Positions 1 to 51,902 of a DNA stretch of 64,000 nt are shown in pieces (the stretch's first letter is position 1; each line of letters opens with the position of its first letter). Under the pieces are notes generated by a model. That model was given only the letters and a program-made list of their open reading frames with translations, was not told where the DNA came from and ran no database searches. The translations under genes and the position numbers were made by a program. Source of the stretch: an archaeon BMS3Bbin15 (GTDB lineage Archaea > Hydrothermarchaeota > Hydrothermarchaeia > Hydrothermarchaeales > BMS3B); the NCBI GenBank assembly GCA_002897955.1, contig BDTY01000050.1, forward strand, positions 2,641 through 66,640. The letters run 5' to 3'.

Positions 1-384
1 ATGGTTGTTCCTCATGCTATTTTTACTGGTCCTCAGCTTGCGGGAGTTGGATTAACAGATGAACAGGCAATTGAAAAAGGAATAAAATGTAAATGCAATA
101 CAGTTTCTATGGAATTAGTCCCGAAAGCCCTGGCAATTAAGAATACAAAAGGTGCTGTAAAAATGGTTGTTAATGCCGAAACTGATGAAATCACAGGTAT
201 CCACATTTTAGCACCCGAAGCAGCTGACTTAGTACATGAAGGAGTCATGATTGTCAAAAACAGAATGAAAATTGATGATGTAATAAATACATTACATATT
301 TTTCCTACACTATCTGAAGCAATAAAAATCGCTGCTCAATCATTAAGAAGAGATATAACTAAGATGAGTTGCTGTGTAGAGTGA
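1..384 (+). CDS. merA: mercuric reductase MerA, C-terminal 127 aa (5' end lies outside window)
   Basis: C-terminal interface domain of a pyridine nucleotide-disulfide oxidoreductase (FTGPQLAGVGLTDEQA). It ends in the vicinal Cys pair ...KMSCCVE that is diagnostic of MerA. Confidence 0.6.
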   Translation: MVVPHAIFTGPQLAGVGLTDEQAIEKGIKCKCNTVSMELVPKALAIKNTKGAVKMVVNAETDEITGIHILAPEAADLVHEGVMIVKNRMKIDDVINTLHIFPTLSEAIKIAAQSLRRDITKMSCCVE

Positions 385-10318: not shown

Positions 10319-10648
10319 TTAAATAATGCTGAGAACCTTCTTCAAATTTTCATCTTTAAGCTTATAATATCTCCACTTCCCTGCCCGTCTCTCGTTCACG
10401 GCATCAATCTCTTTGAAGCTTCTCAGATGGTGGGAAACAAGCGTCTGGTCTATTTTTAAAGCTCTTTCGAGTTCGCATACGCAGCGCTCTTTATTTTTTA
10501 TCAGAAGGGCAATCTTTAACCTTATAGGGTTTGAGAGCAGCCTGAAAATTTTCAAAAACTCCTCCACATCCGCGACTTCCAGCTCCGTATCTTCAACAGA
10601 ACACATATCCATAATATTAGATTGATGCAAACATTTAAATACTTTCAT
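10319..10648 (-). CDS. arsR: ArsR/SmtB family metalloregulator
   Basis: A winged HTH with the CVCELERAL metal-binding motif ahead of the recognition helix. It is divergent from ACR3. The real start may be the internal MDMCSV. Confidence 0.75.
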
Positions 10649-48076: not shown

Positions 48077-48237
48077 TGAAATACCTCCTGTTAATCTATT
48101 TCAATCTATTTTTTCAGTAGTATTACTAAATATACAACCCTTTATAAAGCTATTTAAGAGGTGTTATGAAATTTTATGAAAATTCTGATTTGAGTAATAT
48201 ATGATGACAGGCTTTATATACTTAACATGATAATGAT

Positions 48238-48247
48238 ATCATATGAT
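48238..48247. promoter_or_regulatory. perfect palindrome ATCATATGAT upstream of merB (candidate operator)
   Basis: The same 10-mer recurs at about 48977 upstream of the ArsR-type regulator gene. Confidence 0.4.
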
Positions 48248-48284
48248 ACCTTGGTCATTTTTAATGTGGCCGACCATGTAGCGG

Positions 48285-48941
48285 GTGATTATCATGAAAA
48301 GGCTTATGGAGCAAATCGGAGAAGCGGTGAGAGGTCGGATAGGGGAGGCAGAATTAAGCCACCTTGAGAACGAAATCCGGAAATGCATACTGAGGGGGTT
48401 TGCGAGAGGAGGCAGAGCCCCTGCCCCTGAAGAAATTGCGGCAGAGCTGGTTCTGCCCATTGACACAGTCAGCAAAACTATAGAAAAGCTTGGAAATGCC
48501 GACATTCTGCTGAGTAAAGGAGGTCATATTATATCCGCGTATCCTTTCTCAGCTGTTGAAACGCGTCACAGGGTGATTTTTGAGGATGGGCATGAGGTCT
48601 ATGCTCTCTGCGCCACCGACGCTCTTGGTATTCACTTCATGCTGGGTGATAATATAACCATACTCTCAAGATGCCCGGAATGCGAAGATGAGATTAGAAT
48701 TGTAGTCAAGGAGGGCAGGATAACCTCTGCAACCCCTGAGGATGCTGTTGAATTTGTTGGTGATAGGGAGAGGTGCGGATGCACAGCGGAAACCATGTGC
48801 CCTTTCATCAACTTCTTCTGCTCCCAGGAGCATCTGGAGGCGTGGAGATTGAAAAATTTAGAATACAGAGATGGGGAGATTTATTCACCAAACGAAGCCT
48901 TGGAATACGGCAGGTCTATATTTGGAGATTTTGTAAAATAA
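48285..48941 (+). CDS. merB: organomercurial lyase MerB
   Basis: YALCATDAL aligns with the MerB catalytic Cys96/Asp99 motif. CPFINFFCSQEH corresponds to the Cys159 region. Confidence 0.65.
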   Translation: MIIMKRLMEQIGEAVRGRIGEAELSHLENEIRKCILRGFARGGRAPAPEEIAAELVLPIDTVSKTIEKLGNADILLSKGGHIISAYPFSAVETRHRVIFEDGHEVYALCATDALGIHFMLGDNITILSRCPECEDEIRIVVKEGRITSATPEDAVEFVGDRERCGCTAETMCPFINFFCSQEHLEAWRLKNLEYRDGEIYSPNEALEYGRSIFGDFVK

Positions 48942-48976
48942 TTGCGAAAGTTTTATATAATTTATATGATACTCTA

Positions 48977-48986
48977 ATCATATGAT
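48977..48986. promoter_or_regulatory. second copy of palindrome ATCATATGAT, with the ATATGATAC half-site repeated 13 nt upstream
   Basis: It lies directly upstream of the ArsR-family gene, as expected for an autoregulatory operator. Confidence 0.4.
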
Positions 48987-49320
48987 GTATGAATCATTCA
49001 AACTCTTCGCAGGCGTGCTATCCAACCGTACCCGCTTCGACATAGTGATGCTGCTCATGAAGAAGGAGATGAGCGTTCTTGAGCTGTGCAGTGAGAGCGG
49101 TTATGAGCAGAGCAGGGTATCTCACAACCTCAGGTGTCTCCTCAACTGCGGTTTTGTTGATGTGGAACAGCAGGGCAGGAGGCGTGTTTACAGCCTTAAC
49201 CATGAAATGAAGGATTTAATATCAGGAATGGAAAATCATATCCAGCTTTATGAAGTCAGGCTGAGAAAGTGCGATATTCTGAGGGAGGAGGGCATAACTT
49301 CTATCAGGGTGGAAAGATGA
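48982..49320 (+). CDS. ArsR/SmtB-family HTH regulator (probable metal-responsive repressor of the mer locus)
   Basis: Winged HTH MSVLELCSESGYEQSRVSHNLRCL. Confidence 0.7.
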   Translation: MMYESFKLFAGVLSNRTRFDIVMLLMKKEMSVLELCSESGYEQSRVSHNLRCLLNCGFVDVEQQGRRRVYSLNHEMKDLISGMENHIQLYEVRLRKCDILREEGITSIRVER

Positions 49321-49751
49321 AAGGCAGAAAATTAAATCCTGTACTTATTCTGTTCATTTTAGTTGCAGTTTTTTTTGTAGTTTATAATCTGTATCCTTTA
49401 TTCGGTGGAAATAACCCTGGAGAATTAAAAAATTTGAATAACCAGTCATACAGCAGCAAAACACCTGTAATTTACTACTTCTGGCTCCAGTGCACGGAGT
49501 GCGAGTCGACAAATAAGGCAGTGTCGGAAGCTGCTGAACATTACAGGGGGAAAATTGAATTTAGATTGATAAATGTAGTAACAAACAAGAATGCTAAATC
49601 TATTGCAAATATGTTTGGTGTGAAATATGTCCCATACCTTGTATTTTTAGACGGGAATGGAAATCTACTGAAGAAAAAGGGTGGAGAAACGAGTTACAGG
49701 GAAATTACAGAAATTATAGAAAATCTGTATCCCAAAGTTAAGGAAGGATGA
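49314..49751 (+). CDS. membrane-anchored thioredoxin-fold protein (CxxC)
   Basis: N-terminal TM helix, then VIYYFWLQCTEC (CxxC) and a cis-Pro region KYVPYLVFLDGNG. The ATG overlaps the regulator stop in an ATGA arrangement. Confidence 0.5.
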   Translation, partial: KMKGRKLNPVLILFILVAVFFVVYNLYPLFGGNNPGELKNLNNQSYSSKTPVIYYFWLQCTECESTNKAVSEAAEHYRGKIEFRLINVVTNKNAKSIANMFGVKYVPYLVFLDGNGNLLKKKGGETSYREITEIIENLYPKVKEG

Positions 49752-49752
49752 A

Positions 49753-50013
49753 ATGGGAGATAAAAAGAAAAAGCGTGGCATAATTGTAGCAGCAGGTGGA
49801 TTGATTGGTCTGATTACTGCCTCAGCCTGCTGCCTGCCTGTGGTTGCCGTGCTACTGGGTGGTCTTGGTGGAATAAGTCTCGTTATTGCAATTGCAACAT
49901 ACAAGCTGCCTTTAACTCTCCTGGGAATAGGTCTTATACTGTTGAGCCTGTGGTACTATATGAGAGAGGATAAATGTGAGAAGTGTAATCTCGAAAAGGA
50001 GGTAAAAAAATGA
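49753..50013 (+). CDS. MerF/MerT-like small mercury transporter (two TM, vicinal Cys)
   Basis: TM1 carries SACCLPVV, the CC-(L/V)-P motif of MerT/MerF. A second Cys pair, CEKC, sits at the C-terminus. Confidence 0.45.
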   Translation: MGDKKKKRGIIVAAGGLIGLITASACCLPVVAVLLGGLGGISLVIAIATYKLPLTLLGIGLILLSLWYYMREDKCEKCNLEKEVKK

Positions 50014-50708
50014 AATTTGAAATAGAGGTGATGGCTGAGAAGGTTTGCAAAAGGTGTGAAACAGAGGGTATGAAAGTTGTACCTCTAACTCTGGGGGTGC
50101 ATGTAAAGGAGGAGTATTGGGACAAAATAGACGAGGACTTTTACTTCTGTCCTTCACAGGAGTGCGATGTGGTGTACTTCAACAATGTTAAGGATGTTTA
50201 CCTCACAGAGGCTGAGGTTAAAACAAGGGTAGGAATTAAAGAAGATTCTGAGCCAAAGCCTCTGTGTTATTGCAACAGGGTTACGGATGAAATGCTCAGG
50301 AAGGCGATTATCGAGGAGAAGTGCTGTTCCACTCTCGAGGGTGTTCAGGAGGTTACGAATGCGGGGAAGGGCAGGTGGTGCCTGACAACAAATCCCTCTG
50401 GCAGGTGCTGCGAGTGGTATCTCAAGGATATAATAAACTCATATCTGAGTCAGGTGGAGGTTGAAGCTTCGGAGGATGTGAAGAAGGAGAAAGCTTTGAA
50501 GAGGCTGGTGCTGAAGGTTACAGGAATGACATGTCAGGGCTGCGTGGGAGTTGTCAGGGGTAACCTGGAGAGTGTGGGAGCAGGCAAAGTCAGAGTGTCT
50601 CTCAGCGGGGGTAAGGCAGAGATGCTTGTGCCTCAGAGTGATAGCGCTGAAAAGTTTGTGAAGGCTGTCAGGAATGCCGGGTATGAGGCAGAGGTTGTGG
50701 GAAGGTGA
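50010..50708 (+). CDS. CopZ-like metallochaperone: Cys-rich N-terminal domain fused to a C-terminal HMA domain
   Basis: The C-terminus LKVTGMTCQGCVGVV is an HMA GMTCxxC motif. The N-terminal 130 aa carry about 11 Cys (CKRC, CPSQEC, CYC, CCS, WCL, RCCEW). This resembles the Zn/[2Fe-2S] domain described for Archaeoglobus CopZ. Confidence 0.55.
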   Translation: MKFEIEVMAEKVCKRCETEGMKVVPLTLGVHVKEEYWDKIDEDFYFCPSQECDVVYFNNVKDVYLTEAEVKTRVGIKEDSEPKPLCYCNRVTDEMLRKAIIEEKCCSTLEGVQEVTNAGKGRWCLTTNPSGRCCEWYLKDIINSYLSQVEVEASEDVKKEKALKRLVLKVTGMTCQGCVGVVRGNLESVGAGKVRVSLSGGKAEMLVPQSDSAEKFVKAVRNAGYEAEVVGR

Positions 50709-50859: not shown

Positions 50860-51186
50860 ATGTTTATAATAAAGTCTCTGGCCCTCTTTGTCCTTGCAGG
50901 TCTTGCTGAGATTGGAGGTGGATATCTTGTGTGGCAGTGGTATCGAGAGAGTCACAGCATTTATATTGGTGTCCTGGGTGCCATAATCCTTGTGCTTTAC
51001 GGCATAATTCCCACCTTCCAGCCTGCCAGTTTCGGCAGGGTATATGCTGCTTATGGCGGTATCTTCATCGTTATGGCCATATTATGGGGCTGGATGATAG
51101 ATAAAAAGCCTCCTGATATCTTTGAACTAATAGGTGGGGGTATATGCGTGATTGGAGTATTCATAATAATGTACTGGCCAAGGTGA
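50860..51186 (+). CDS. UPF0060 (YnfA) family small membrane protein
   Basis: 108 aa, four TM segments. RVYAAYGG motif identical to E. coli YnfA. Confidence 0.7.
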   Translation: MFIIKSLALFVLAGLAEIGGGYLVWQWYRESHSIYIGVLGAIILVLYGIIPTFQPASFGRVYAAYGGIFIVMAILWGWMIDKKPPDIFELIGGGICVIGVFIIMYWPR

Positions 51187-51362: not shown

Positions 51363-51902
51363 ATGAGCAATGTAAAAATTGAGAATGTCGTTGCTTCAAC
51401 ATCTCTTGGACAAAAGTTTGACTTAGGATTGATAACAGTCAGTCTTGACAAAGTTGAGTATGAGCCTGAACGGTTTCCTGGTCTGGTTTATCATCTGGAT
51501 GAGCCAAAGGCTGCAGCTTTGATTTTCGGTTCAGGTAAGATAGTATGCACTGGAGCTAAGAGCATTGAACAAGCCACTCTTGCTATTAAGAGGACAATTG
51601 AAAAGATAAAAGGCGCAGGTATAGATATAAAGGCTGAGCCTGAGGTTGTAGTTCAGAATGTTGTGGCAACAGCCAATCTCCATGCTGAGCTTAATCTTGA
51701 TGCTATTGCAATAGCTCTTGATAATACAGAATATGAGCCAGAGCAATTCCCTGGTCTTGTGTATAGAATGAGTAAACCAAAAGTTGTACTCCTGCTCTTC
51801 GGTTCAGGAAAGATGGTATGTACCGGTGCCAAAAGTGTAAATGACGCTGAGATGGCAACTGAGAATGTCAAAAAAACCCTTCAGGAGCTGGGTTTAATAT
51901 AG
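51363..51902 (+). CDS. tbp: TATA-box binding protein
   Basis: 179 aa. Two imperfect direct repeats. IENVVASTSLGQKFDL / VQNVVATANLHAELNL. Confidence 0.9.
   Translation: MSNVKIENVVASTSLGQKFDLGLITVSLDKVEYEPERFPGLVYHLDEPKAAALIFGSGKIVCTGAKSIEQATLAIKRTIEKIKGAGIDIKAEPEVVVQNVVATANLHAELNLDAIAIALDNTEYEPEQFPGLVYRMSKPKVVLLLFGSGKMVCTGAKSVNDAEMATENVKKTLQELGLI

Follow-up and report, generated by a model that had tools for sequence, protein, structure and literature searches.

A conserved 32-bp double dyad at the merB and arsR promoters of an uncultured archaeon, a likely operator of an ArsR-family metalloregulator

The analyzed DNA, a 64,000-nt stretch of contig BDTY01000050.1 from archaeon BMS3Bbin15 (positions 2,641 to 66,640, assembly GCA_002897955.1; hereafter the window), carries a merB-family gene followed by an arsR-family gene, and each of them is preceded by its own promoter (P1 for merB, P2 for arsR) with a copy of the same 32-bp inverted repeat. 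Based on comparison with related loci, these repeats are probably operators at which the 112-aa ArsR/SmtB-type protein encoded by the second gene would act as an autoregulated repressor of both promoters, to be released by Hg(II) or organomercurials. The operator was assigned to this protein because it tracks the corresponding ArsR clade and because its half-sites and the recognition helix of the protein are both invariant. The proposed mechanism is the textbook one for the family, in which an ArsR/SmtB repressor acts on an inverted repeat in the promoter of its own gene, and represents an ordinary metal-resistance switch that is well supported comparatively. Less ordinary are the start codon embedded in the operator and a merB insertion/deletion polymorphism (indel) bounded by operator copies. 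The regulator clade itself is uncharacterized, displays CmtR-like cysteines, and heads mer-type operons.

For the genes of mercury and organomercury resistance in uncultured archaeal relatives of methane-cycling lineages, groups in which the regulation of mer genes is unstudied, the comparative evidence defines both the cis-element and the probable sensor. Archaeal MerB is rare and was reported in 11 of 1959 genomes (PMC8261052). The 32-bp site can be used as a regulon search pattern in metagenome-assembled genomes (MAGs), as a binding probe, and as a candidate part for Hg biosensors.

The 32-bp unit and its conservation

For comparison of the promoter regions, 29 distinct promoters from archaeal MAGs and metagenomes, drawn from the DNA contexts of 34 orthologues of the ArsR protein and from merB loci, were aligned on the ATG within TCATATG. 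The alignment revealed a conserved unit of 32 bp, ATGA-N8-TCAT|ATGA-N8-TCAT, i.e., two abutting 16-bp dyads with the half-sites ATGA at -16 to -13, TCAT at -4 to -1, ATGA at 0 to +3, and TCAT at +12 to +15. These half-sites were near-invariant (1.6–2.0 bits per position), both N8 spacers were variable (0.1–1.2 bits per position), and the most conserved block was TCATATGA with 1.8–2.0 bits over its 8 positions.

In the window, the P1 operator spans positions 48227–48258 (+) and consists of dyad 1 (ATGA-taatgata-TCAT, 48227–48242) and dyad 2 (ATGA-taccttgg-TCAT, 48243–48258), the latter located in the non-coding 5' leader of merB. The P2 operator at 48966–48997 (+) is likewise composed of dyad 1 (ATGA-tactctaa-TCAT, 48966–48981) and dyad 2 (ATGA-tgtatgaa-TCAT, 48982–48997), and here dyad 2 covers arsR codons 1–5 and the first base of codon 6 (ATG ATG TAT GAA TCA T, encoding MMYES). 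Comparison of P1 and P2 showed that the spacers have diverged and all four half-sites are identical; about 40 bp of the two regions can be aligned, always with 739 bp between corresponding positions.

The first-pass annotation of this DNA had pointed to a 10-bp perfect palindrome upstream of merB and again upstream of the ArsR-family gene, which was confirmed. The sequence ATCATATGAT is its own reverse complement and occurs at 48238–48247 and at 48977–48986, the second copy holding the arsR start codon ATG at 48982. Judged from the alignment, it marks where two dyads join, with one extra base on each side, and is not the functional unit. Thus, of the two-promoter metalloregulator operon proposed earlier, the tandem promoters, their common operator, and the ArsR-family gene were retained, and the 10-bp palindrome was given up as the binding unit. 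These two copies are the only ones in the 64-kb window, compared to 0.20 expected by dinucleotide shuffling, with two or more copies in 3 of 100 shuffles, and no additional copy was found there with one mismatch allowed. By itself, this count is only modestly significant. The sequence ATATGATAC, described as a half-site at 48241 and 48964, was also present as stated (48241–48249 and 48964–48972) and nowhere else in the window (0.41 copies expected). Its two copies are not equivalent, the one at 48964 being the left arm of P2 dyad 1 and the one at 48241 the left arm of P1 dyad 2. The 31-nt pattern ATGA-N8-TCATATGA-N8-TCA matched the window without mismatch solely at 48227 and 48966, at an expectation of 0.29 even with up to two mismatches, and all four matches to ATGA-N8-TCAT in 64 kb lie within the two operator sites. 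A chance origin of the palindrome pair was rejected because of its position, the extended pattern, and the conservation in the 29 promoters.

Constraint on the operator appears to act at the DNA level and is visible separately from coding constraint in two places, namely arsR codon 5 and the merB leaders. Codon 5 encodes Ser, Ala, or Thr, and its third position, which is four-fold degenerate, was A in 22 of 23 sequences; at other four-fold sites in arsR, the commonest base reached about 60% at most. In the merB leaders, the ATGA and TCAT of dyad 2 are retained with four different sequences between them (taccttgg, cgcattgg, catgttgg, and cgtatctg). The dyad is non-coding in the window and in two related loci (L001 and L019), and in locus L011 its last half-site overlaps the merB ATG. 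An RNA hairpin or attenuator was also considered and was rejected, since the predicted arsR transcript has no sequence ahead of the ATG and arms of 4 bp are too short for stable stems.

Promoters, regulator, and their co-occurrence

Since the host is an archaeon, both promoters were read as archaeal promoters with a TATA box and a transcription factor B (TFB) recognition element (BRE). A sigma-70 promoter logic for P1 and P2 was rejected given the archaeal host and the gene for the TATA-binding protein (TBP) at 51363–51902. The TATA box of P1, TTTATATA, is located at 48213–48220 (+), i.e., at -30 to -23 relative to the central ATG of the operator, as in most promoters of arsR orthologues, and an identical TTTATATA was identified in the P2 sequence and in the promoter alignment at 48952–48959 (+). 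Both copies of ATCATATGAT begin 18 nt past the last base of this box. In 24 of 25 arsR promoters, the TATA box starts at -28 to -32 and is preceded by a conserved AA, its center lying at about -26.5; it is 5–9 bp closer to the operator in L011, L035, and L037. The earlier description of AT-rich DNA with TATA-like boxes between the palindrome copies held in part, as merB coding sequence makes up most of the stretch in question and the first TATA box precedes copy 1.

In the arsR promoters, the central ATG of the operator is the start codon. Because of this and of the TATA center at about -26.5, the arsR mRNA is predicted to be leaderless. As the spacing between TATA box and operator in P1 is the same as in the arsR promoters, transcription from P1 is predicted to start near 48243, which would give merB a leader of about 51 nt. 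A Shine–Dalgarno-like sequence (GGGTGAT) ends this leader 5 nt before the merB ATG at 48294. No such sequence was found before the arsR ATG. We infer that arsR would be poorly translated from P1 read-through transcripts, which would account for the retention of P2. Locus L011 harbors one operator only, ahead of merB, and arsR starts there within the end of merB.

The regulator gene (48982–49320, +) encodes a protein of 112 aa with an HTH_5 domain (PF01022, E = 9.7e-12, 45 bits versus a cut-off of 22) that also matched the ArsR-family model NF033788 (67.4 bits, cut-off 55). Bacterial mercury regulators of the MerR family have an N-terminal HTH with a coiled-coil dimerization helix and use an operator within a promoter of 19-bp spacing. 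By contrast, no match to a MerR family was found for the present regulator in Pfam or NCBIfam, and the promoter is of the archaeal TATA type. The AlphaFold model (mean predicted local distance difference test score, pLDDT, of 88.5) revealed the a1-a2-a3-aR-b1-b2-a5 order of the ArsR/SmtB fold, with helices at residues 2–14, 16–27, 32–39, 43–56, and 74–96 and a hairpin at 59–72. The best sequence matches in the PDB were SmtB, NmtR, and CzrA. Among the 34 orthologous proteins, the recognition-helix segment YEQSRxSHNLxCLLNCGFV was invariant in all 34, parallel to the invariant half-sites, and so were Cys36, Cys52, Cys56, and Cys97. A distant second ArsR-like coding segment with 36% identity over 72 aa was identified at window positions 10349–10561 (-).

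In regard to its cysteines, the protein resembles CmtR (Rv1994c) of Mycobacterium tuberculosis, an alpha4C Cd/Pb sensor, by a Cys-x3-Cys in the recognition helix and a further Cys 41 residues later. In an ungapped BLASTP alignment, for which the CmtR sequence was checked against PDB entry 2jsc, Cys52 and Cys56 pair with CmtR Cys57 and Cys61, and Cys97 follows after 41 residues, as does Cys102 in CmtR. These three CmtR residues are its Cd/Pb ligands (PMC1665450). In the AlphaFold model, Cys52 and Cys56 are situated at the end of helix 4, Cys97 just past helix 5, and Cys36 in helix 3. Differences from CmtR are the fourth invariant cysteine (Cys36), the archaeal host, and the mer-type gene context. 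Orthology with CmtR was rejected, since the protein reached 32.9 bits with the CmtR equivalog model NF047906 (cut-off 150), the identity was 33% over 61 residues, and what the two proteins share are the ligand positions. According to its title, a study by Chauhan et al. 2009 (cited in PMC3338718) reported CmtR as autoregulatory and as binding multiple operator sites cooperatively.

The operator and this regulator clade occur together. Related loci amounting to 375 kb were fetched, and 33 of the 38 loci encoding an orthologue of the clade (36–97% identity) harbored the operator with at most one mismatch, as did the window. In all cases, it was located directly upstream of an arsR gene of the clade or of a merB-like gene ahead of such an arsR gene, and the sole other matches in the 375 kb, with one or two mismatches, overlap these sites or lie next to them. 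That the motif might be frequent throughout the genome, named in the first-pass annotation as an argument against its role, could be checked by approximation only: the 64-kb window revealed no extra copies, and among the related loci (375 kb) each site with one mismatch or none precedes an arsR orthologue or a merB-like gene. The operator was also present in loci that lack merB (L013, L014, L016, L018, L020, and L024–L030). It was absent from loci with only out-of-clade ArsR relatives (28–43% identity) and from merB loci of Methanoperedens, Dehalococcoidia, and Nitrospirota without this ArsR clade.

Five loci of the clade did not show the operator. Three of them (L012, L031, and L032) are truncated contigs on which the upstream DNA is short or missing. 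The other two (L033 and L034) encode an arsR homologue of 44% identity with a Shine–Dalgarno-led TTG start, and about 60–40 nt upstream of it they carry another perfect palindrome, TGACATATGTCA (TGA-N6-TCA; at about 1760–1790 in L033), which may be a variant operator in a bacterial-type promoter.

The merB-merA loci of Methanoperedens (L002, L003, L007, and L009) were used as negative controls. They were rejected as orthologous contexts, as they encode another ArsR (38–41% identity over 71 aa) and lack the motif. Since the double dyad is absent there, another regulator-operator pair is presumably used in these loci. In their organization, merA directly follows merB, a gene for a Cys-rich protein precedes merB, and a different ArsR-like gene lies about 3 kb upstream of merB. 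Three loci of a more distant lineage (L035, 1528–3070, L036, and L037) revealed, in this order, the double dyad, an open reading frame (ORF) for a 298-aa MerB-like protein, a small Cys-rich ORF, and the arsR orthologue. Their TATA box lies 5–7 bp closer to the operator, the first ATGA of which may be where the MerB-like ORF begins.

Proposed repression by the ArsR-family protein and other explanations

Characterized 12-2-12 operators of ArsR/SmtB proteins, e.g., AATACCTGAACA-GA-TGTTCAAGTATT, have a TGA-N8-TCA core with the two triplets 11 bp apart from center to center, occur singly or in pairs at, overlapping, or near the start site, and are freed from repression by metal (PMC8790569). An imperfect inverted repeat of this type was found here as ATGA-N8-TCAT twice per promoter. 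The locus thus shares with the 12-2-12 systems (SmtB at smtA, ZiaR, CzrA, AztR, and AzuR) a winged-helix regulator and the TGA-N8-TCA inverted repeat, but differs from them in several respects. Here, two 16-bp dyads abut and their inner arms fuse into the perfect palindrome TCATATGA, the promoter is archaeal with TATA box and BRE, the start codon of the regulator lies at the center of the site with the second dyad in coding sequence, and the predicted sensory cysteines are at alpha4 and C-terminal positions rather than at alpha3N and alpha5.

Repressors of mer operons that are of the ArsR type instead of the MerR family have been described for Sulfolobus solfataricus and Streptomyces lividans, where they are encoded together with the mer genes and repress these in the absence of Hg (PMC3466566). 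The Sulfolobus mer set consists of merH (TRASH), merA, and merI, in contrast to merTP, a copZ-like gene, and sometimes merA and merB in the loci of this study. Schelert and colleagues are said to have found in 2006 that the Sulfolobus protein binds an inverted repeat beside the TATA box. In the literature searched, we found neither the double-dyad operator nor the leaderless arsR, and nothing specific on the motif or on ArsR-regulated mer genes in methane-cycling archaea. A reported archaeal regulator of mercury methylation (PMC10349881) proved to be a toxin-antitoxin gene next to hgcAB and is unrelated.

In the mechanism that we propose, the 112-aa ArsR protein would bind the 32-bp operator at about -16 to +16 around the transcription start. 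The favored stoichiometry is two dimers, one per 16-bp dyad, with centers 16 bp apart. The bound repressor would occlude the start site and block recruitment of RNA polymerase or initiation downstream of TBP and TFB. P2 would be the regulator's own promoter, and P1 a second copy of the promoter-operator module that drives merB. Binding of a thiophilic metal to Cys52, Cys56, Cys97, and possibly Cys36 would then release the repressor and derepress both units. The effector would most likely be Hg(II), produced by MerB from organomercurials.

The gene content of the orthologous operons points to mercury as the effector. Their gene order is arsR-merTP-copZ(-merA), and the second gene is MerTP-like in NCBIfam, below the cut-off. 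The gene merA was identified inside the orthologous operons of L011, L014, and L016, and the reductase of L011 passes the MerA equivalog model TIGR02053 (548.7 bits, cut-off 454.45). MerB-family genes stand under this operator in at least three lineages, i.e., the window group, L011, and L035–37. In addition, the 3' end of a merA gene, cut by the start of the window, was found at window positions 4–381 (+), 48 kb from the merB/arsR locus. It shares 70% identity with the last 126 aa of the L011 MerA, so that the organism has merA away from this locus.

Several points weigh against this proposal. All assignments of regulator to operator are comparative. For dyad 2 of the arsR promoters, coding constraint is a confounding factor, and the independent non-coding evidence for this dyad comes from only about two lineages, namely the group of the window, L001, and L019, and L011. 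Moreover, the whole 32 bp is palindromic about TCAT|ATGA, so that the sequence alone fits two dimers, a tetramer, or a third central dimer alike and cannot separate these models. The MerB of the window stays below the equivalog cut-offs of NCBIfam for both MerB (75.8 versus 193) and SaoL (86.5 versus 140). The operon of the window lacks merA, and in about half of the orthologous operons only genes for a membrane protein with an HMA domain and for a CopZ-like chaperone were seen, merA being absent within 5 kb, so that the effector could be another soft metal.

This last point leads to an explanation that is rather unlikely but deserves some weight, in which the operator is as described and the effector is not mercury but Cd(II), Pb(II), Cu(I), Ag(I), or thiol oxidation, the association with merB and merA being secondary. 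It would agree with the match of the cysteine ligand positions to those of the Cd/Pb sensor CmtR, as well as with the operons devoid of merA, including that of the window. Against it stand the bona fide MerA in the operons of L011, L014, and L016, the recurrence of MerB-family genes under the operator, and the MerTP-like second gene.

It is improbable that the 10-bp palindrome ATCATATGAT itself is the complete site for one regulator dimer. Such a site would fit the perfect palindrome at both promoters and TCATATGA as the most conserved block, but it leaves the outer half-sites unexplained, although the ATGA 8 nt upstream and the TCAT 8 nt downstream are equally conserved. A triplet spacing of 11 bp fits one winged-helix dimer on one face of the DNA. 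In the central palindrome, TCA and TGA are only 5 bp apart from center to center, compared to 11 bp in characterized 12-2-12 operators (PMC8790569), and the 10-bp sequence is therefore unlikely to be a dimer site by itself.

The conserved bases could also represent basal promoter, initiator, or leaderless-translation signals around the arsR start codon, which we regard as very improbable. In 25 arsR promoters, the central ATG does coincide with both the start codon and the predicted transcription start at a near-constant distance from the TATA box, but the half-sites are also preserved at merB promoters whose central ATG does not serve as a start codon (P1 of the window, L001, L019, and L011). 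The TATA box is 5–9 bp closer in L011, L035, and L037, and the motif is restricted to loci of this ArsR clade. To our knowledge, the invariant ATGA at -16 to -13 matches no known archaeal core element.

There is just as little to suggest that the two copies are a mere relic of promoter duplication or cassette insertion, with the palindrome mattering only as a recombination junction. The alignment of P1 and P2 over about 40 bp at the 739-bp offset and a locus lacking exactly the DNA between the copies (L018, see below) would agree with such a history, but descent and function are not exclusive. All four half-sites are identical in P1 and P2 and the spacers have diverged, a pattern that extends across 29 promoters, down to 36% regulator identity, and this constancy of the half-sites against diverging spacers argues for purifying selection on them.

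Finally, binding by another protein, e.g., by the N-terminal helix-turn-helix region of MerB, at which weak sub-cut-off Pfam matches to Sigma70_r3 and HTH_20 were found, has a negligible chance, since the operator occurs in many loci without merB and is absent from merB loci without this ArsR clade.

Presence/absence polymorphisms and genes of the locus

Comparison of the window with its relatives revealed a polymorphism at the operator copies. The 739-bp segment at 48248–48986, which comprises merB and P2 and is bounded by the palindrome copies, is absent from L018. On the two sides of the gap, L018 is 98.5% and 98.0% identical to the window, exactly 739 bp are missing, and the flank alignments overlap by exactly one 10-bp ATCATATGAT (L018 2458–2467). 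The outcome would be a P1-driven leaderless arsR, whose remaining operator shows four substitutions clustered in the left flank and spacer of dyad 1 and has intact half-sites. In L001 and L019, which are about 94% identical to the window, merB and both promoters are retained. Since these more distant loci keep them, it is most parsimonious that L018 lost the segment when its two operator copies recombined, with an insertion or an assembly artefact as alternatives.

Based on this, it is possible, and we suggest it only tentatively, that the operator, the center of which is at once the start codon of the leaderless arsR and a 10-bp repeat, doubles as a modular cassette boundary, at which a gene together with a second promoter-operator is lost, and possibly gained, by recombination between copies. 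If true, loss would regenerate a working autoregulated arsR exactly, the operator would also dictate the N-terminal residues of the regulator (MMYES), and the repeated recruitment of merB-type genes under one sensor across archaeal lineages would be explained.

A second polymorphism was identified downstream. L001 (4997–5000) and L019 (5309–5312) lack 642 bp corresponding to window positions 49291–49932. This indel removes the gene for a thioredoxin-like protein and most of the MerT-like gene, and arsR is truncated after residue 103.

The merB-family gene (48294–48941, +) encodes a putative organometallic lyase of 215 aa (Pfam MerB PF03243, 113 bits, cut-off 27). Its motifs 'LCATD' (Cys-x-x-Asp) and 'MCPF' align with the catalytic positions of MerB structures, and the catalytic residues of MerB are Cys96, Asp99, and Cys159 (PMC8261052). 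The closest public contig was L001, the MerB of which is 92% identical. Downstream of arsR in the operon, we identified genes for a membrane-anchored thioredoxin-like protein (49317–49751, +, Pfam Thioredoxin), which is the one absent from L001 and L019, for a small MerT-like membrane protein with a Cys-Cys motif and weak matches to MerT and MerTP (49753–50013, +), and for a CopZ-like metallochaperone with zf_CopZ, BFD [2Fe-2S], and HMA domains (50010–50708, +), orthologues of which follow arsR in most related loci. Following the operon, a gene for a YnfA membrane protein (YnfA/UPF0060, PF02694) is located at 50860–51186 and may belong to the regulon. A YnfA homologue with 37% identity was also found after the arsR orthologue in L039 (1616–2005).

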